From NCBI GenBank assembly GCA_036398695.1, contig DASWOL010000204.1:345-64344 (forward strand): 64,000 nucleotides of DNA, in the 5' to 3' direction. Each line of letters opens with the position of its first letter. Position 1 is the first letter of the stretch. The notes below the pieces were generated by a model. The model was not told the DNA's origin. It saw only the letters and a list, made by a program, of their open reading frames with translations, and did not search any database. Source of the stretch: Cellulomonas sp. GTDB lineage: Bacteria > Actinomycetota > Actinomycetes > Actinomycetales > Cellulomonadaceae. The position numbers and the translations under genes are program-made. Below, piece after piece: positions 49,615-57,758 of the stretch.

Positions 49615-49800
49615 TCAGCAATCGAATGCAGGGCGATGTCGCGCCGACTCATTCCCTGCGCCGATCCAGACCCGAACCTGGTCGTCAGCGGTCGCGGTGA
49701 TCGTGTAGGTCCCGGTGGTGGGGAACGTCACGAAGCCGGTGCCCGCCACGAGCCACCAGTTGGGCCACTCGAAATCCCTGGATGACCGCTGCTGGAACCC
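49615..49800 (-). pseudogene. PA14-like domain fragment
   Basis: Frame reads WWLVAGTGFVTFPTTGTYTITATADDQVRVWIG and stops soon after; no intact gene. Confidence 0.55.
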
Positions 49801-49881
49801 CCGCCAGTGTCGTCGGTGATCCCAGGCCGATCGTAGAACGCCGCTGGTCCGCGTCTGCGCAGGTCACGGCCGTGTCTTAAG

Positions 49882-49966
49882 CGGAGGATGGGGGATTCGA
49901 ACCCCCGAGGGTGTTACCCCAACACGCTTTCCAAGCGTGCGCCATAGGCCACTAGGCGAATCCTCC
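49882..49966 (-). tRNA. tRNA-Ser(GGA)
   Basis: GGAGGAT/ATCCTCC acceptor stem, CACGC-TTGGAAA-GCGTG anticodon arm, GTTCGAATC. Confidence 0.96.
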
Positions 49967-50000
49967 CGGCCGCACGAGGATACCGGACCGCACCCGGGAC

Positions 50001-50594
50001 TCAGGACTGTTCGGCGGGTCCTGGCAGCCGCAGCACCGTTGCCGCGAAGTACGAGGCCTCGGCCGGGTCGTGCGTGATGAGCAGGGCGGTCCGGCCGGGC
50101 AGCCGTGAGCGCACCCACGCCAGCGTCGCGGCCTTCGCGTCGGTGTCCAGCCCGGTGAAGGGCTCGTCGAGCACCACGAGGTCGGACGGCGCCAGCACGC
50201 CGCGCACCAGCGCCACCCGGCGCCGCTGCCCCCCGGACAGCGAGCGCACCGGCTTGCGCAGCGACTCGTCGGCCAGGCCGACGGCCCGCAGCTCGTCGGC
50301 CACCTCCGAGCGCGAGACCGAGCGGGGCAGCACCAGCCGCACGTTGCCCACGGCGGTGAGCTGCTCGCACAGCCGGTTGTCCTGGAACACGGCCGAGCGG
50401 CGCAGCCCCGACAGCCCCGAGACCACCCCGGACGTCGGCGCCTCCAACCCCAGCAGCAGCCGCCCCAGCGTCGTCTTGCCGGACCCGTTGGCCCCGAGCA
50501 ACGCCGTCACGGAGCCGTCGGGCAGGCTGAGCGAAACGTCGCGCAGCACGACGAGGGACCCGAAGGTCTTGGTCACCGACGAGAGCGTGATCAT
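50001..50594 (-). CDS. ABC transporter ATP-binding protein (NitT/TauT type)
   Basis: GANGSGKT, LSGGQ, LDEPF. Confidence 0.92.
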   Translation of the reverse strand: MITLSSVTKTFGSLVVLRDVSLSLPDGSVTALLGANGSGKTTLGRLLLGLEAPTSGVVSGLSGLRRSAVFQDNRLCEQLTAVGNVRLVLPRSVSRSEVADELRAVGLADESLRKPVRSLSGGQRRRVALVRGVLAPSDLVVLDEPFTGLDTDAKAATLAWVRSRLPGRTALLITHDPAEASYFAATVLRLPGPAEQS

Positions 50595-51400
50595 GACGCT
50601 TTCCCGTCCGAGAGCCGTCGCTCCAGCAGCGAGAGCAGCCACAGCACCAGCCGCTCGAAGGCGAACGCGACCAGCACCACCACCGCGGTCCAGGCGAACA
50701 CGTCCGCCGTCTCGAGGAACAGGCGCCCCTGGTACAGCCGCTCACCGATGGTCCCGCTGGGCAGGCCGATCACCTCGGCGGCGATGCCGCTCTTCCATGC
50801 CAGCCCCACGCCGGTGCGGCATCCGGCGGCGAAGTACGGCAGCACGCCCGGCACGTCGATCGCCAGGAACCGGCGCCACCGGGACACCCGGAACACCGAG
50901 GCCATCTCCAGCAGCGAACGGTCGCGCTCGGCGATCCCCGACAGCACGGTCGCGTGGATGATCGGCAGGGTCATGAGGAACGAGACGATGGTCGCCAGGC
51001 GCTCGGGATCCGCCCAGATCAGCACCAGGATGATGAACGACACGACGGGCGTGGACCGGATGGTGGTCACCACCGGCGCCAGGAGGGCCTCGATCCACTT
51101 CGACCAGGCGGACAGCGCCGCGAGGAGCACCCCGACGAGCGCCGCGAGCAGGAAGCCGAGCGTGATCCGCCCGAACGTGCGCGTTACCGCGTCCCAGAAG
51201 TCCGCGGTGGGCACCAGCTGCGTCAGCCGGACCGCGACTTCCCACGGCCCGACGAGCAGCACCTTCTGATGGACGGCGAGTGACGCGCCCTGCCATGCGG
51301 CCAGCCAGAAGGCGATGGCCAGCAGCGGGCGCGCCACCCGCCAGGTGTCCGTAGGAGCCTGGTGTGCGGCCCCAGGCTCAGGAACCGAAGTAGAAGTCAT
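50591..51400 (-). CDS. ABC transporter permease (NitT/TauT type)
   Basis: 'IRSTPVVSFI', 'LLEMASVF', 'GLAWKSGIAAEVIG'. Confidence 0.92.
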   Translation of the reverse strand: MTSTSVPEPGAAHQAPTDTWRVARPLLAIAFWLAAWQGASLAVHQKVLLVGPWEVAVRLTQLVPTADFWDAVTRTFGRITLGFLLAALVGVLLAALSAWSKWIEALLAPVVTTIRSTPVVSFIILVLIWADPERLATIVSFLMTLPIIHATVLSGIAERDRSLLEMASVFRVSRWRRFLAIDVPGVLPYFAAGCRTGVGLAWKSGIAAEVIGLPSGTIGERLYQGRLFLETADVFAWTAVVVLVAFAFERLVLWLLSLLERRLSDGKAS

Positions 51401-52442
51401 CGCCCGGCATAGTCCCACCGACCGACTTCGGATCCGCGGTGAACAGCACCTGCAGGTAGCTGCTCAGGGCCGTCTTCATGTCCGCGCCCGCGATGTACGT
51501 CACGTGGCTGGCGGGGATCGCGGCCTGCGCCACCGGCGCCGCGGGCACGATGCCTGCTGCGGCGATGAGCGCCGCGGCCCCGGCCGGGTCGTCGTTGGTG
51601 TACTTCGTGGAGGCCTGGTAGTCCGCCAGGAAGTCCGCGAAGGCGGCCGGGTGGTCCTTGACGAAGGCGGTGCGCACCACGAGCACGCCGGTGATCAGCT
51701 GCGAGCCGGCGTCGCTGACCTTGGTCCACTCGTCGGTGAGGTCGAACACGGTGCGCACGCTCGCGGTCTGCTTTTCGACCACGGTGACGTACGGCTGCGG
51801 CAGCACGGCGACCGTGCCGGGATTCGCGGTCACCCGGGAGCCGAGCGCCGTCGCCTCGCTCTCGAACGCCACGGTGACGTCCTTGGCCGGGTCCAGGCCG
51901 TTCTTCGCCAGCAGGTAGTCGAGCACGTACTCCGGCGTGGTGCCCTTGCCGGTGGTGTAGATCGTCTTGCCCTTGAGGTCGGCCCAGGTGTGGACGGTGT
52001 TGCCGTTCTCGACGATCTGGAGCACGCCGAGCGTGTTGATCGCGGCGACCTGCACGGCCGGGCCGGCGTCGGTCTTGGTCTGCTGGTAGAGCACCGCGGC
52101 GAGGTTGGACGGGATGAGCGCCACGTCCACCTTGCCCTGCACGACGAGCGGCACCACCTCGTCGGGCGAGCCGTACATGGTGACCTTGTAGTCCTGCTTG
52201 CCGGCGCCCTTGGTGGCGTCGTCCATCAGCTTGACCAGGCCCATGGTGGTCGGTCCCTTGAGGGACGCGATGTTCATGGTGACGCGCTCGGCCGGCGTGG
52301 TGGGCGCGGGGGCCGGGGTGGTGCTCTCAGCCGCGGCCGAGGTGGCCGGGGTCGTCGTCGGCGCCGCTGTCTGGCCGGAGCAGCCGAGCAGCAGCGCCCC
52401 TACCGCGACCGACCCGAAAAGGGCGCGCGCGATCCGCTTCAT
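51378..52442 (-). CDS. ABC substrate-binding lipoprotein (SsuA/NMT1-like)
   Basis: Lipobox LLGC, 'LKGPTTMG', 'AVLPQPY'. Confidence 0.88.
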   Translation of the reverse strand: MKRIARALFGSVAVGALLLGCSGQTAAPTTTPATSAAAESTTPAPAPTTPAERVTMNIASLKGPTTMGLVKLMDDATKGAGKQDYKVTMYGSPDEVVPLVVQGKVDVALIPSNLAAVLYQQTKTDAGPAVQVAAINTLGVLQIVENGNTVHTWADLKGKTIYTTGKGTTPEYVLDYLLAKNGLDPAKDVTVAFESEATALGSRVTANPGTVAVLPQPYVTVVEKQTASVRTVFDLTDEWTKVSDAGSQLITGVLVVRTAFVKDHPAAFADFLADYQASTKYTNDDPAGAAALIAAAGIVPAAPVAQAAIPASHVTYIAGADMKTALSSYLQVLFTADPKSVGGTMPGDDFYFGS

Positions 52443-52480
52443 GGGGGTGACCTTCCGTACTAGGGGGGCTGGACTGCGAG

Positions 52481-55400
52481 TCAGCGCTCGAACCGCGCGT
52501 ACTCGGTGTGGAGCAGGTGGTGTGCCAGCTCCGAGTTCGGCTCACCGTAGAACTCGTCGTAGAGCCGGAGGATGTCGGGGTTCTCCTGCGACGTGCGCAG
52601 CGGCGACGTCTTGTCGATGTTGACCAGGACCTTCTGGCGAGCCACCATCTCGCCGGTCGCCGAGGCCACCGGGTGGCCGGCGCCGTTGATGCACCCACCG
52701 GGGCAGGCCATGATCTCGATGAGGTCGAAGCCGACGTCCTCGCCCGCGACGACCCGCTTGACCAGCGGCGCGGCGTTGTTGAGGCCGGAGATCACCGCGA
52801 CGCGGACCGTGGTGCCGCCTGCCTCGTACGTCGACGTCTTGATGCCCTCGAAGCCGCGCAGCTCCTCGAAGTCGAGCGACTTCGGCTTCTCGCCGGTGAG
52901 CGTCTCGACGGCCATGCGCATCGCGGCCTCGGCGACGCCGCCGGAGGCGCCGAACAGCATGCCGGCGCCGGAGACCTGGTGGTAAGGCTCGTCGAACTCG
53001 CCAGGCGTCACGTCCTCCGGCTCCAGCCGCAGCTGGTGGACCATCTCGAGGAACTCGGTGGTGGTGAGCACGGCGTCGACGTCGCGGACGCCCTCGGGGG
53101 CGAACTCGTCGCGGGCGGCCTCGTACTTCTTCGCGAGGCACGGCACGATCGAGACGACGTAGAGGTTGTCGAGCGCGATGCCCTCGGCCTTGGCGAAGTG
53201 GTTCTTCACCGTGGCGCCCATCATCTGCTGCGGGCTCTTGCAGCTGGACAGGTGCGGGATCAGCTCCGGGTAGCGGCGCTCGACGAGGTTGACCCAGCCG
53301 GGGCAGCACGAGGTGAACTGCGGCATGACGCCGCCGCGCTCCACCCGGCCGAGGAACTCGGTCGCCTCCTCCATGATGGTCAGGTCGGCGGCGAAGACGA
53401 AGTCGAAGACCTTGTCGAAGCCGATCTTGCGCATCATGCCGGCGATGAACGGCCCCACCTCTTGCGGCGTCAGGCCGTACTCGGCGGCGATGACGCTGCG
53501 GATGGCGGGGGCGACGAAGCCGACCACGGTCTTCGACGTGTCGTTGATCGCGGTGAACACCTGGTTGCGTTCGCGCTTGTAGTCCAGCGCGCCGCACGGG
53601 CAGGCCCGCACGCACTGGCCGCAGCTGATGCAGTCGGTCTGCGACAGCGGCAGCCCGTTGTGCGTCCCCACGCGCAGCTGGCCGTTGTGGAACTGGAACG
53701 CCAGGACGCCGACGCCCTCGACGTCCGCGCAGGCGGCCACGCAGCGGCCGCAGGAGATGCACTTGTTGTTGTCGCGGATGATGAACTGGTGGTCGCGGAC
53801 GATGGGCGAGGTGGGCCGCACGTGCAGCGGCATCTCGAACACGACGTCGTGGCGTGACGCCTCGTCGCGCAGCGCGCAGTCGTTGCGCTTGGCGCAGCCG
53901 CAGCGCAGGCAGCGGGCCGCCTCGGCACGAGCCTGCTCCTCGGTGAGGCCGGTCTCGACCTCGACGAAGCTCTTGACGCGCTTGTCGACGGCCAGGCCGT
54001 TCATCGTCGCGCGGGCGAGCTTGGGCAGGTCCTCGAACTCGGCACGCGGCAGGTCCTCGAGCGAGCCGCGGCTGCAGGTGTAGTCCTCGTGGCCCGGGCG
54101 CACGTAGCCGCGGGTGACGAACTCGTCCATGGCGCCGGCGGCCCGCCGCCCGGCGGCGACGGCCTGGATCACGGTGGCCGGGCCGGTGACGCAGTCGCCG
54201 CCGGCGAAGATCTTGGACTCGGACGACTTCATGGTGCGGCCGTCGACGTCGATGTCGCCCCACTTGTTGAGCCGCACCGGCACGTCGTTGTAGAGGAAGC
54301 CGGTGTCGGTGCTCTGGCCGATCGCGCCGATGATGGTGTCCGCGGCGATGACGAAGTCGCTGCCCTCGACGGGAACCGGGCGGCGGCGGCCGGAGCGGTC
54401 GGGCTCGCCCAGCTCCATGCGCAGGCAGTGCAGCTGCTTGGAGCCGTCCGGGCCCACGGTGATCTTGTTCGGCGCGGTGAGGTACATCATCTCGACGCCC
54501 TCGAGCTCCGCCTCCTCGATCTCGTACGGCTCAGCCGGCATCTCCTCGCGGCTGCGGCGGTAGACGAGCGTGACGTGCTCGGCGCCGTTGCGCAGCGCGG
54601 TGCGCGTGCAGTCGATCGCGGTGTTGCCGCCGCCGACGACGACCGTGCGGCCGAGCGGGATGGTGTCGCCCTTGATGACCCGCTCGAGGTACTGGATGCC
54701 CATCCACACGCCGTCGAGGTTGTCGCCGTCGATGCGCAGCGGGGTGGCCCGCCACGAGCCGATCGCCAGGTACACGGCGTCGAAGTCGCGCTGCAGGTCC
54801 TCGAGGCTGAGGTTGGTGCCGAGAGCCTTGCCGGTGATGATCTGCACGCCCATCGACTGGATGACGCCGATCTCCTTGTCGAGCGTCGCCTTCGGGAGGC
54901 GGTACTCGGGGATGCCGTAGCGCATCATGCCGCCGGCGTGCGGCTGCTTCTCGAACACGGTGACCGCGTGGCCCACGATCGCCGCGTAGTACGCGGCGGC
55001 CAGGCCGGAGGGGCCGGCGCCGATGACGGCGATCGTCTTGCCGGTGGGTGCGGCGACGCGCGGGATCCACGGCGTCTCGCGTGACATGTCCCAGTCCGCC
55101 GCGAACCGCTTGACGTAGTTGATGGCGACGGGCTCGTCGACGAGGTTGCGGCGGCAGGCCGCCTCGCAGGGGTGCGGGCAGACGCGGCCGCAGACCGACG
55201 GGAACGGGTTGCGGTCCTTGATGACCCGGACGGCGGCCTCGTAGTTGCCGTCCGAGACGAGCCGCAGGTAGGTCTGGATGTCGACGTTCGCCGGACACGT
55301 CTCCACGCACGGCGCGACGCAGTCGGCGTTGTGGTCGCACAGCAGCTGCTCGAGGCGCACCTTGCGGTAGGCGTCCAGGCGCTCGTTGTGCGTGGTGATC

Positions 55401-55642
55401 TTCATGCCGGCGCGGATGGGCGTCAGGCACGCCTTCACGTCGCGCGGGGTGTCCCCGCCGACCTCGACCACGCACAGGCCGCAGCTGGCGTTGGAGCGCT
55501 CGAGCCGCGGGTCGTGGCACAGCGAGGGGATCTCGATCCCCTCCTGCGTCACCGCCTGGAGGATGGTCAGGCCTTCCACCGCCTGGATCTCACGGTTGTT
55601 CACCGTGACGGTGACGGTGTCGACTTCGGCCTGCGCGGTCAC
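52481..55642 (-). CDS. hydA: Multidomain [FeFe]-hydrogenase with an internal GltD/NfnB-like FAD/NAD(P) module (group A2-like)
   Basis: N-terminal 2Fe-2S (IPSLC, CGLC, C), GltD motifs (GRVCP, GAGPSG, YGIPEYRLP, GGGNTAID, YRR), 2x CxxCxxCxxxC, H-cluster motifs FTSCCPGW, VPCLAKKYE, EIMACPGGCINGAG, small-subunit tail 'SQENP...HHLLHT'; GGAGG RBS before GTG. Confidence 0.92.
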   Translation of the reverse strand: MTAQAEVDTVTVTVNNREIQAVEGLTILQAVTQEGIEIPSLCHDPRLERSNASCGLCVVEVGGDTPRDVKACLTPIRAGMKITTHNERLDAYRKVRLEQLLCDHNADCVAPCVETCPANVDIQTYLRLVSDGNYEAAVRVIKDRNPFPSVCGRVCPHPCEAACRRNLVDEPVAINYVKRFAADWDMSRETPWIPRVAAPTGKTIAVIGAGPSGLAAAYYAAIVGHAVTVFEKQPHAGGMMRYGIPEYRLPKATLDKEIGVIQSMGVQIITGKALGTNLSLEDLQRDFDAVYLAIGSWRATPLRIDGDNLDGVWMGIQYLERVIKGDTIPLGRTVVVGGGNTAIDCTRTALRNGAEHVTLVYRRSREEMPAEPYEIEEAELEGVEMMYLTAPNKITVGPDGSKQLHCLRMELGEPDRSGRRRPVPVEGSDFVIAADTIIGAIGQSTDTGFLYNDVPVRLNKWGDIDVDGRTMKSSESKIFAGGDCVTGPATVIQAVAAGRRAAGAMDEFVTRGYVRPGHEDYTCSRGSLEDLPRAEFEDLPKLARATMNGLAVDKRVKSFVEVETGLTEEQARAEAARCLRCGCAKRNDCALRDEASRHDVVFEMPLHVRPTSPIVRDHQFIIRDNNKCISCGRCVAACADVEGVGVLAFQFHNGQLRVGTHNGLPLSQTDCISCGQCVRACPCGALDYKRERNQVFTAINDTSKTVVGFVAPAIRSVIAAEYGLTPQEVGPFIAGMMRKIGFDKVFDFVFAADLTIMEEATEFLGRVERGGVMPQFTSCCPGWVNLVERRYPELIPHLSSCKSPQQMMGATVKNHFAKAEGIALDNLYVVSIVPCLAKKYEAARDEFAPEGVRDVDAVLTTTEFLEMVHQLRLEPEDVTPGEFDEPYHQVSGAGMLFGASGGVAEAAMRMAVETLTGEKPKSLDFEELRGFEGIKTSTYEAGGTTVRVAVISGLNNAAPLVKRVVAGEDVGFDLIEIMACPGGCINGAGHPVASATGEMVARQKVLVNIDKTSPLRTSQENPDILRLYDEFYGEPNSELAHHLLHTEYARFER

Positions 55643-55743
55643 GTCCAAGACCTCCATCGTGAGAGCGATGGGGTCGCTGGCGAGGTCCCCGGTGCTCTCG
55701 TCTATGGCCGCACGGTGTCGGTGCCGCCTCCTGGCGACAACGC

Positions 55744-55761
55744 TAGGGAAATTCATCACAA
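55744..55761. promoter_or_regulatory. Rex-like operator upstream of the hydrogenase
   Basis: TTGTGATGAATTTCCCTA (minus strand), 11/14 match to TTGTGAA-N4-TTCACAA in an AT-rich patch. Confidence 0.55.
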
Positions 55762-55853
55762 GGAACAGTGGACTTCCGACCCAGACACATCCGCTGATTT
55801 GAGGGAGCCCGCCGCGGCGGACGGGCCGGCGCGGGACGCTAGTCTTGGTCTTC

Positions 55854-55943
55854 GACCCCTCGTACGGCGTCATCCCGCTGAACCCCCCCAGGGCCGGAAG
55901 GCAGCAAGGGCAGGTGGGCTCTGACGGGTGTGCGGGGGGTCCT
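55854..55943 (+). ncRNA. ffs: Signal recognition particle small RNA (4.5S)
   Basis: GACCCC...GGGGTC closing stem, CAGGGCCGGAAGGCAGCA domain-IV motif, upstream of dnaX. Confidence 0.9.
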
Positions 55944-55969
55944 TGCGTGCCCGGGACTCTCGTCCCTTC

Positions 55970-55985
55970 TAGAGCGATCGCTCTA
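55970..55985. promoter_or_regulatory. Perfect palindrome, probable TetR operator
   Basis: TAGAGCGATCGCTCTA 16 bp upstream of the tetR start. Confidence 0.75.
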
Positions 55986-56001
55986 ATCGGATGCTGGAGC
56001 C

Positions 56002-56595
56002 ATGACCGACCGTGGCGCCGCGACCCGAGAGCGCATCCTCACCGCAGCCGCAGCGCTGTTCACCGAGCACGGCGTGAGGGCCGTCTCGACGAACCGCGTC
56101 GCGGCCGCGGCCGGGGTCAGCCCCGGCAACCTCTACTACTGGTACGCCGACCGCGAGTCGATCGTCCGCGCGCTCTACGACCGCTTCCTTGCCGAGCACG
56201 ACGAGCTGTGGGCCTCCCTCGACGGCAGCGCGGCCGGGCTGGAGCGGCTGCGGCTCGCGCTCGCGGCCTCCGCCGGGATCAGCGCGCGGTACCGCTGGCT
56301 GGTCCGCGACCTCGTCGGGCTGGTGCACGCCGACCCCGAGCTGGAGCGGACCTACCGCCGCGTGCGGACCGCCCGGCTGGAGGCGTTCGGTGCGGTGGCC
56401 CGGGCGTGGCGCGCGGCCGGCCTGGTGCGGGACGTGGACGACGAACGGCTGGCCGACGTCGTCGAGGCGCTCTGGGTGATCGCCGAGACGTGGTGGCCCT
56501 TCGCCGAGCTCGACGAACCGGAGCCGGACCCGCAGGTGGGCGCCCGGCTGGCGCGCGCGGTGCTCGAGCCGTACCTGACGGGTGGTGCGCGATGA
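56002..56595 (+). CDS. TetR/AcrR family regulator
   Basis: 'TRERILTAA..LF...G....STNRVA..AGVSPGNLYYWY'. Confidence 0.93.
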   Translation: MTDRGAATRERILTAAAALFTEHGVRAVSTNRVAAAAGVSPGNLYYWYADRESIVRALYDRFLAEHDELWASLDGSAAGLERLRLALAASAGISARYRWLVRDLVGLVHADPELERTYRRVRTARLEAFGAVARAWRAAGLVRDVDDERLADVVEALWVIAETWWPFAELDEPEPDPQVGARLARAVLEPYLTGGAR

Positions 56596-57758
56596 CCGCG
56601 GGTCCGGTCCGGGGCCCCTCCCGGCGTGCAGTGCTGCGCTGGTTCGGCATCGGCGCCGGTGCGGTCGTCGTCGGAGGAGTGGCGGCGCGCGCCGGCTACC
56701 AGGGGCTGTTCGCGCCCCGGACCGGCCCGGCGTACGCGGCGTGGCACGAGTCGACATCGGGCGCCGACGGGCTGGTCGCGGCGGCGGTGCTCGCCGCCAG
56801 CGCGCACAACATGCAGAACTGGACGTTCCACCTGGGCGACGGAGCGCTCGAGGTGTCCGACGACACGACGCGCGCGCTGGGTGTCGTCGACGCGCACCGC
56901 CGCGAGGCGCACCTCGGGATCGGCTGCGCCGTGGCGAACGTCGAGGTGTCGGCGCCGGCGCTCGGGTTCGCCACGCGGCTCGTCGTGCGGCCGGACGCCC
57001 AGCGGCCCGAGCTGCTGGCCCGGTTGAGCCTGACGCGGCGCGACCCCGTGCCCCCCGACGCGCTGGGCGCGGCGATCCTCGACCGGCACTCCGACCGTGG
57101 TCCGTACCCCGGCGAGGAGCCGACGGCCGGCCTGCTCGACGACGTGCGGACCACGGCGCTGGCCGGAGCCGAGGGCGTCGACCTCGTCTGGGTGACGGCG
57201 GCCGACCAGCGCGCCCGGCTCGGCACGCTGCTCGTCGATGCCGCGCAGGCGCTGGTCGACGACGAGCAGATGTCCGTCGACAACGCCGAGCTGGTCCAGT
57301 ACGACCACGGACGGGTGGAGCGTGAGAAGGACGGCCTCACCATGGACGCGCAGGGCATGTCGCCGCTGCTGACCCTCCTGGCGCAGCTCGCACCGGCGAC
57401 GCCGCGTGGCACGGCCGACGCGTCATGGGTGAAGGCGACGCGCGACGTGCACACCGCGACCGCGCGGGCCTACGGGCTGCTCGTCGGCCGCCGGGACGAC
57501 GTGGCGACCCGGGTGCACGCCGGGCGCGCCGTGGAGCGGCTGCACCTGGCGCTCGTCGCCCGAGGCTGGGCGATGCAGCACATGAACCAGGCGGTGGAGA
57601 TGGCCGAGCGGGACGTGCTCACGGGCACGCCGGACCGCTTCGACGCACCGCTCGCCGACCTGGCCGGGGGCCAGGTGGTCACCCTGGTGCGTCTCGGCCG
57701 TCCGAGCGGCCGGGCGGTGGCCAGCCCGCGGCGGCCGGTGCCGGAGGTGCTGGGCTGA
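56592..57758 (+). CDS. Acg-family nitroreductase-fold FMN protein with Tat-like signal
   Basis: 'SRRAVL' + hydrophobic stretch; 'LAASAHNMQNW', 'RHSDRGPY', 'SPRRP'. Confidence 0.82.
   Translation: MTAGPVRGPSRRAVLRWFGIGAGAVVVGGVAARAGYQGLFAPRTGPAYAAWHESTSGADGLVAAAVLAASAHNMQNWTFHLGDGALEVSDDTTRALGVVDAHRREAHLGIGCAVANVEVSAPALGFATRLVVRPDAQRPELLARLSLTRRDPVPPDALGAAILDRHSDRGPYPGEEPTAGLLDDVRTTALAGAEGVDLVWVTAADQRARLGTLLVDAAQALVDDEQMSVDNAELVQYDHGRVEREKDGLTMDAQGMSPLLTLLAQLAPATPRGTADASWVKATRDVHTATARAYGLLVGRRDDVATRVHAGRAVERLHLALVARGWAMQHMNQAVEMAERDVLTGTPDRFDAPLADLAGGQVVTLVRLGRPSGRAVASPRRPVPEVLG

Follow-up and report, generated by a model that had tools for sequence, protein, structure and literature searches.

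BtuFCD, the importer of vitamin B12, is an example of cofactor salvage, in which an enzyme is kept, the biosynthesis of its cofactor is dropped and the cofactor is taken up from outside. The same logic is common to importers built around binding proteins such as PqqT, ThiY and TauA/SsuA. For the H-cluster of [FeFe]-hydrogenases, HydE, HydF and HydG have the roles set out in PMC9431212, and the source of the cluster in organisms that lack these maturases is a stated puzzle: by the account in PMC11216029, among 130 archaeal genomes that encode an [FeFe]-hydrogenase only 5 contain a full maturase set, and no maturase is found in Giardia or Entamoeba. Here we describe a locus of a Cellulomonas-like actinobacterium in which the gene of an [FeFe]-hydrogenase is followed by genes of an ATP-binding cassette (ABC) importer. 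It lies in a 64,000-nt stretch of contig DASWOL010000204.1, which we call the window. The importer shares the fold class of its binding protein with PqqT, ThiY and TauA/SsuA, and its proposed cargo differs from theirs in being an organometallic Fe–CO/CN complex. Genomic comparisons in two phyla give good support for linking this importer to the cofactor supply of [FeFe]-hydrogenases.

A hydrogenase and an importer in one operon-like series

Four minus-strand genes stand in series. The first encodes a single-chain group A [FeFe]-hydrogenase of 1053 amino acids (aa) (52481–55642; open reading frame, domain and model matches), and the second a lipoprotein substrate-binding protein (SBP; 51378–52442) with lipobox Cys21, an NMT1/TauA/SsuA fold and membership of a 3HN0-like family, which is a candidate binder of the [2Fe] cofactor. 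An ABC permease (BPD_transp_1; 50591–51400) follows, probably starting at ATG 51400 within an open frame that extends to GTG 51418, and then a 197-aa ABC ATPase (50001–50594; start ATG 50594), in which Walker A, signature, Walker B and H-loop are all present. The left edge of the interval outlined in a preliminary description of this DNA, 50001, is the ATPase stop. The operon-like coupling proposed there is borne out by a gap of only 38 bp between hydrogenase and SBP, an overlap of SBP and permease, an ATGA overlap joining permease and ATPase, and the lack of any terminator-like site on the minus strand within 49700–56100. Six RNA sequencing runs matched, four of them with 6–7% of words, and gave no sign of transcription or co-transcription: the four matches examined are contigs of relatives about 88–90% alike, some of 5–12 kb and possibly DNA, and therefore show neither.

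An intact H-domain joined to an internal NADP(H) module

The hydrogenase comprises the domains Fer2_4 (residues 9–86), Fer4_20 (108–188), Pyr_redox_2 (203–498), Fer4_7 (627–685), Fe_hyd_lg_C (704–988) and Fe_hyd_SSU (999–1049). Its cofactor segments are a [2Fe-2S] segment (9–86), a 2×[4Fe-4S] segment (628–681) and an H-domain with small-subunit segment (704–1049). Membership of group A follows from a TIGR02512 score of 437 against a cut-off of 405.95 and from intact motifs L1 (FTSCCPGW, 776), L2 (PCLAKKYE, 834) and L3 (EIMACPGGCINGAG, 976). Residues A711-P712-A713, E759, C779, C780, S799, C835, K838, M978, C980 and C984, which include the H-cluster cysteines and the pocket and proton-path positions, are identical in 121 of 121 sequences.

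Against an ordinary HydA, residues 1–109 align to the start of that protein and 583–1049 to its remainder, with 43% identity over 583–1049. A GltD/StnC-like FAD–NADP(H) module of about 470 residues (about 109–582) is therefore inserted within the His-ligated [4Fe-4S] motif, splitting it into H104-x3-C108 and C583-x5-C589; the four ligands of this motif are likewise identical in 121 of 121 sequences. The preliminary description had called the protein a single-chain NAD(P)-linked hydrogenase, and this architecture agrees with it.

Compared with described group A enzymes (CpI, HydA of HydABC; HydDB subgroups A1, A2 and A3), the window enzyme shares the TIGR02512 match and all H-cluster motifs. 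It differs in its 470-residue NADP(H) insert, in having neither hydBC nor hydEFG, and in being followed by an ABC importer instead of GltD, NuoF or HycB. Its earlier assignment to group A2 is not supported as it stands, since in HydDB the mark of A2 is a GltD gene downstream of the hydrogenase (PMC5037454) and here GltD is fused inside the protein, with the SBP gene directly downstream; the enzyme may nevertheless work like an A2 enzyme, a group described as still needing characterization (bioRxiv 10.1101/2024.08.15.608110, PMC12578642). The NuoF-like HydB and HydC partners that mark the bifurcating A3/Bfu enzymes are not adjacent. No HydB-like or StnB partner was found in the source genome, which is 89% complete and encodes one [FeFe]-hydrogenase; its sole NuoF homologue sits in the complex I operon.

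The closest structural relatives of the N-terminal part are StnC of Sporomusa ovata StnABC (8OH5) and NfnA of NfnABC (9BOV, 9N5U). Residues 9–713 align with 8OH5_C and 9BOV_A in the Protein Data Bank (PDB) at E values from 1e-175 to 1e-186, and all three proteins have the [2Fe-2S] domain, the GltD-like module inserted in a NuoG-type domain and the 2×[4Fe-4S] segment. StnC has an inactive FdhF-like C terminus and StnAB partners, whereas the window protein has an intact H-domain and no partners were found for it. As described in PMC10482914, the FAD of StnC binds NADPH and is non-bifurcating. We infer that the hydrogenase is a monomeric, non-bifurcating NADP(H)/H2 enzyme, with its cofactor preference and direction as predictions; such a single-chain enzyme is of interest for cofactor regeneration. 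A limited literature search on Cellulomonas found no pure-culture H2 data for it.

This hydrogenase also occurs twice in one genome (locus L107), as two fused copies 77% and 88% identical to that of the window, the ABC cassette accompanying only the closer copy. Loci labelled Proteobacteria (L015, 78% identity) and Candidatus Paceibacteria (L045, 64%) carry it too, and are probably mis-binned or mislabelled contigs. The closest loci, 93% and 88% identical, are labelled Cellulomonas.

Maturases are missing from the host lineage

The preliminary description had noted the lack of hydEFG within the window, and the lack extends genome-wide. Profile models and tblastn found no HydG and no HydE in the source genome, and HydF gave only N-terminal GTPase-domain matches far below cut-off; of 14 controls, 2 scored above the cut-offs of the maturase models. 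None of 37 relatives, 14 of them hydrogenase-bearing, yielded HydG, and neither HydE nor HydF exceeded its cut-off in four distinct closed or near-closed genomes (G007 and G084 being one genome). When the 79 best hydrogenase loci were traced to their genomes, HydG was found in none of the 50 from Actinomycetota and in 23 of the remaining 29. Because HydG was not found across relatives and actinobacterial carriers, nor HydE and HydF above cut-off in closed or near-closed genomes, incompleteness of the source genome is not the reason for the missing maturases. The locus does not belong to a HydEFG-dependent maturation system.

The radical S-adenosylmethionine (SAM) inventory of the source genome looks ordinary. 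It consists of seven CxxxCxxC matches: those that by motif we take to be MiaB, RlmN, LipA, HemN/HemW, a pyruvate formate-lyase (PFL) activase and one likely spurious frame, and one TIGR04053 protein; none is HydE- or HydG-like. LipA exceeded its cut-off in all five genome records examined, the source genome included.

The importer accompanies the hydrogenase across Actinomycetota

Among 281 Cellulomonadaceae genomes, those at least 90% complete plus the source genome, the SBP is present in 46 of the 51 with an [FeFe]-hydrogenase and in 0 of the 230 without one. With an [FeFe]-hydrogenase in 51 of 281 genomes, the earlier view that such enzymes are unusual in these hosts is not supported. Four of the five hydrogenase genomes lacking the SBP have instead a protein of an EamA family, which occurs in 7 of the 281 genomes, all of them hydrogenase-positive. 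In six of its seven genomes the EamA gene lies about 1 kb behind a NuoF-linked hydrogenase; copies behind such hydrogenases in HydG-less Cellulomonadaceae include L122:10124–11113, L125:2297–3298, L121:9825–10771 and L216:6441–7313, and the gene is frameshifted in G001. The fifth exception (G386) has, next to its hydrogenase, a lone permease of the ABC type considered here, at 44% identity. Further [FeFe]-hydrogenase types of the family (L121–L125, L213, L216) include a HydA with a C-terminal HydC-like domain (L121) and a NuoF–GltD fusion (L124:3556–7302). HydG was not found in G001, G002, G017, G024 or G026, which carry such types; G192 and G386 are further carriers.

Gene neighbourhoods repeat this association. 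At 50 actinobacterial loci, the ABC cassette lies directly behind the hydrogenase in 33, in some convergently; an MHS-type major facilitator superfamily (MFS) transporter is present in 7, the SBP is encoded elsewhere in 5 and the contig is too short in 5. The seven MFS genes occupy the slot of the cassette (L036, L040, L042, L044, L046, L049 and L075) in HydG-less Propionibacteriales, in both orientations, and are 63–87% identical to the L049 copy. Among the 29 other loci, the contig is too short in 7, and the cassette is present in one (L015) and missing from 21; neither an ABC nor an MFS transporter occurs in any of the 21 cassette-less non-actinobacterial loci with room for one, and HydG is found for 18 of them. 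Beyond these transporters, no gene family was seen repeatedly next to the hydrogenase in different lineages, with neighbours called by a rough script that may err on small or overlapping genes.

The SBPs of Actinomycetota fall into two lineages, each nearest to Bacillota proteins, in an IQ-TREE tree of 31 rows, and an approximately unbiased (AU) test rejects their monophyly (p = 0.00013). This is consistent with two putative recruitments of an SBP beside the same hydrogenase.

In Bacillota the binding protein is partly enriched in hydrogenase genomes without HydG

An even draw of 201 Bacillota genomes was searched with a 125-sequence SBP profile. At E ≤ 1e-36 the SBP was found in 51 of the 201 genomes, and HydG in 104. 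A hydrogenase domain is present in 55 of the 97 genomes without HydG, and the SBP in 27 of these 55, compared with 24 of the 104 HydG-positive genomes and none of the 42 with neither HydG nor hydrogenase. Fisher's test of 27/55 against 24/104 gives p = 0.0012, a significance inflated by the non-independence of kin. HydF is missing too in 26 of the 27 SBP-positive, HydG-less hydrogenase genomes. The enrichment is concentrated in the window's own SBP clade, as seen in a FastTree tree of 78 rows (26 actinobacterial rows having been dropped): 11 of the 14 clade members in the draw lack HydG. The importer therefore co-occurs with the enzyme and is enriched where the biosynthesis is missing, as expected of cofactor salvage, with an enrichment that is partial and drawn from kin.

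Gene context ties the SBP family to hydrogenase maturation independently of the window's enzyme. Of 62 non-actinobacterial SBP loci, 8 have TM1266 (TIGR03959) and 5 a different, hydABC-type hydrogenase as the immediate upstream neighbour, 1 is followed closely by a hydrogenase cluster and 1 faces a convergent hydEFG operon; most of the rest have no neighbour related to hydrogenases. Genes for feoA/feoB and Crp/Fnr adjoin some SBP loci.

Upstream of TM1266, a leader RNA was found in all eight SBP operons (seven used for training and one independent at E = 0.0017) and in one hydEFG operon (L115:7496–7590, L116:1546–1594, L117, L118, L129, L151, L152, L154 and L184). It consists of a short hairpin, whose internal loops are GA-rich, and an intrinsic terminator after it, a structure drawn from, and supported by, the same eight rows, and it matches no Rfam family at gathering score. 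It is a candidate riboswitch or TM1266-binding attenuator. The Bacillota importer shares TM1266 and the leader RNA with a hydEFG operon of the canonical kind, whereas neither was found in the window, where control appears to be DevR/Rex-like instead.

Fold and class of the importer

A lipoprotein SBP of the NMT1/TauA fold, one permease and one ATPase with intact motifs place the importer in the NitT/TauT class. The predicted SBP model (predicted local distance difference test score, pLDDT, 97) has the TauA/SsuA/ThiY/PqqT fold at a template-modelling (TM) score of about 0.7–0.8 and 13–18% identity. Its sole clear sequence relative in the PDB (E = 6e-15), also the top Foldseek match, is BDI_1369 of Parabacteroides distasonis (3HN0), an orphan SBP of only 21% identity. 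An Atlas search with an SBP homologue returned only unnamed NMT1 clusters.

A sulfonate importer of the SsuABC/TauABC kind was considered and rejected, the matches falling well below curated cut-offs (TIGR01728, 50.7 against 163.5 bits; SsuC, 69.1 against 347; TauC, 51.6 against 342). A vitamin importer of the ThiXYZ or RibXY kind was likewise set aside: no thiamine pyrophosphate (TPP) or flavin mononucleotide (FMN) riboswitch occurs upstream, in the window or in 10 Bacillota loci, which leaves the earlier suggestions of thiamine-precursor or flavin import without riboswitch support. Lipoate import is made unlikely for this host by its LipA; distant family members may differ.

A predicted promoter for low oxygen

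The hydrogenase gene begins with GTG, 8 nt downstream of a ribosome-binding site, GGAGG (55651–55655, minus strand). Further upstream on that strand are a predicted −10 element, TAGCGT (55740–55745), a Rex-like operator (55744–55761) that overlies the predicted promoter spacer, and a DevR/DosR/OsdR-like activator box (55770–55784). A scan for the sigma-70 consensus found no promoter.

The Rex-like operator matches 11 of 14 positions of a Rex consensus, a score reached by 12 sites in the source genome and by 3 of 3,000 random 330-nt windows. It is kept in the four closest relatives only. Since the source genome has a rex gene, the Rex control suggested in the preliminary description persists as a prediction. 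The DevR/OsdR-like box, overlooked there, is conserved more widely: it occurs, at a fixed 24–25 nt from the −10 element, at 19 of the 30 Micrococcales-type loci and at none of the 43 other loci, against a background of 0.0002 per 260 nt. The box resembles OsdR/DevR sites described in PMC5069765.

Rex-like or DevR-like boxes occur on other contigs of the source genome (C211, C237, C150 and C87), at a pyruvate:ferredoxin oxidoreductase gene, which follows a DevR-like box, at genes for two likely pyruvate formate-lyases and a likely AdhE, and at a likely FeoB gene. Two Rex-like sites precede genes that from their N termini we take to be pflB and adhE, and another DevR-like box precedes what is presumably a second pyruvate formate-lyase gene. 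Together these boxes may outline an anaerobic regulon of Cellulomonas.

Candidate cargo and alternative readings

The cassette is real, conserved and functionally coherent. Its cargo we consider to be, with fair probability, the finished di-iron [2Fe] subsite of the H-cluster, or else one of its late precursors; the most speculative option of the preliminary description, an importer of an H-cluster precursor, is thus the best supported one. When oxygen is low and NADH high, an activator of the DevR/OsdR type would turn the operon on together with the release of Rex, and the apo-enzyme would receive its Fe–S clusters from housekeeping machinery. The lipoprotein would capture [Fe2(adt)(CO)x(CN)2]-type material from HydEFG-bearing anaerobes, the permease and ATPase would import it, and it would enter the empty H-domain without maturases, as a synthetic [2Fe]adt mimic does in living cells. 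Because [2Fe]adt given to living Escherichia coli and Synechocystis matures apo-hydrogenase (PMC6984386), insertion can be independent of maturases; and because a cell without maturases could not use the substrates of HydG and HydE, the completed subsite would be the simplest useful cargo. The matured enzyme would shuttle electrons between its NADP(H)/FAD module and H+/H2 along the Fe–S chain in a non-bifurcating manner, its most likely role being that of a redox valve in fermentation. No description of transporter uptake of an H-cluster or of organometallic Fe–CO/CN cargo was found in a search mainly of the open literature, by titles and the beginnings of abstracts.

A number of observations weigh against import of the [2Fe] subsite. 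A free [2Fe] complex outside cells, oxygen-labile as it is, is an assumption. The SBP has no Cys, His or Met conserved at 80% or more, its conserved residues being Gly, Pro, Asn, Thr and aromatics; because of this lack, the pattern would suggest an intact complex as ligand rather than bare metal. In Bacillota the cut of E ≤ 1e-36 was picked after the scores had been seen, and at the looser E ≤ 1e-20 the SBP is found in 29/55, 28/104 and 2/42 of the same groups. The SBP is not exclusive to maturase-less cells, since 24 of 104 HydG-positive genomes keep it, all with HydF, and outside the window's clade 21 of 37 SBP genomes are HydG-positive and 16 HydG-less. Conversely, 28 of the 55 hydrogenase-positive, HydG-less genomes have no SBP, and in 24 of these HydF is missing as well, leaving 24 Bacillota with hydrogenase domains and no explained cofactor source. 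Two distant SBPs (L167, L171), possibly lipoate-binding relatives, are encoded beside dihydrolipoyl dehydrogenase and lipoate ligase genes, within the clade that holds three hydABC-adjacent members (L168, L176, L177). In Actinomycetota, phylogeny and physical linkage both confound the pattern. The MFS transporter adjoins the hydrogenase in 5 of 9 metagenomic loci at 61% identity or more and in 0 of 16 below, and the AU test that rejects monophyly of the actinobacterial SBPs concerns a group named after the first tree had been seen.

Part of this evidence would fit an intracellular maturation route of another kind, to which the importer supplies a simpler building block, such as an Fe–carbonyl/cysteine synthon or a dithiol like lipoate. 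An alternative pathway of this sort has been proposed for maturase-less archaea and protists in PMC11216029, and it would account for the persistence of the SBP in the 24 genomes with HydG and HydF, for its place beside TM1266 and for the lplA and lpdA neighbours of its distant members. Against it, no second gene family recurs beside the hydrogenase and none of the CxxxCxxC matches in the source genome resembles HydE or HydG; for lipoate in particular, LipA in five of five genome records makes import unnecessary. We regard this route as unlikely. Less probable again is ordinary nutrient uptake that happens to be co-regulated, of an iron chelate, a sulfonate, a thiamine precursor, a flavin or lipoate, with the hydrogenase either lacking its [2Fe] subsite and acting as an NADPH/ferredoxin oxidoreductase or being matured by chance. 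The nearest characterized folds do bind taurine, sulfonates, 4-amino-5-hydroxymethyl-2-methylpyrimidine (HMP) precursors or pyrroloquinoline quinone (PQQ), feoA/feoB and Crp/Fnr genes do lie near some SBP loci, and the first 713 residues resemble StnC/NfnA, proteins with a catalytically inactive C-terminal domain (PMC10482914). Against this reading, none of the 230 and none of the 42 hydrogenase-less genomes yielded the SBP; its links to three hydrogenase settings and to TM1266, the invariance of the [2Fe]-pocket residues and the lack of a TPP or FMN riboswitch argue the same way.

That hydrogenase and transporter are hitch-hiking passengers from Bacillota, the enzyme being a non-functional relic left after the loss of hydEFG, we hold to be very improbable. 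Most actinobacterial co-occurrence is indeed physical adjacency, G386 retains only the permease, and the cassette of L126 (G052) has several frameshifts throughout, for which decay and long-read assembly error are both possible explanations. Against hitch-hiking, the SBP is retained in all five genomes in which it is no longer next to the hydrogenase, it occurs in both orientations and comes from two SBP lineages, a host-type DevR/Rex promoter is conserved and the catalytic residues are invariant.

Uptake of the [2Fe] subsite invites a broader reading, which we put forward more tentatively, as one slightly more apt to fail than to hold: that the subsite is a shared organometallic 'vitamin', released by HydEFG-bearing anaerobes and salvaged by many bacteria through the ABC importer, with the MFS and EamA proteins recruited independently to the same task. 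Were this so, it would explain intact [FeFe]-hydrogenases in maturase-less organisms, community H2 cycling would hinge on cofactor donors and cross-feeding, hydrogenase gene counts would be a poor predictor of H2 metabolism in pure culture, and the importer could serve as a tool for hydrogenase maturation in vivo. The locus makes the puzzle directly testable, because Cellulomonas strains are culturable and aerotolerant, the binding protein is soluble and a synthetic cofactor is available.

Setting of the locus

The module lies between two RNA genes. Its downstream flank is tRNA-Ser(GGA) (49881–49966, minus strand), 34 bp past the ATPase stop, so that the cassette is on the 5′ side of the tRNA gene; its upstream flank is the divergent ffs gene for the 4.5S signal recognition particle (SRP) RNA (55851–55947, plus strand). 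The preliminary description had proposed acquisition as a unit at tRNA-Ser. The cassette does travel as a unit between loci, and a tRNA-targeted genomic island was rejected: no att-like repeat of the tRNA end was found at the locus and no integrase-sized open reading frame in the cassette interval, GC content at third codon positions (GC3) is 0.91–0.98 in the cassette compared with 0.90–0.95 in host genes, and adjacency to tRNA-Ser(GGA) recurs in only 3 of 20 loci scanned. With its DevR/Rex-like promoter, and given the missing repeat, the host-like GC3 and the rarity of this adjacency, the operon would seem to belong to the anaerobic, fermentative programme of its host and not to be an island of recent arrival.

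On the other side of ffs, before dnaX, the window encodes a TetR protein and an Acg/Rv3131-like FMN oxidoreductase (56002–57758, plus strand; NF047509, 189.6 against a cut-off of 199). Acg proteins are members of the DosR regulon. The same TetR and Acg-like pair flanks the hydrogenase in L008 and L013.

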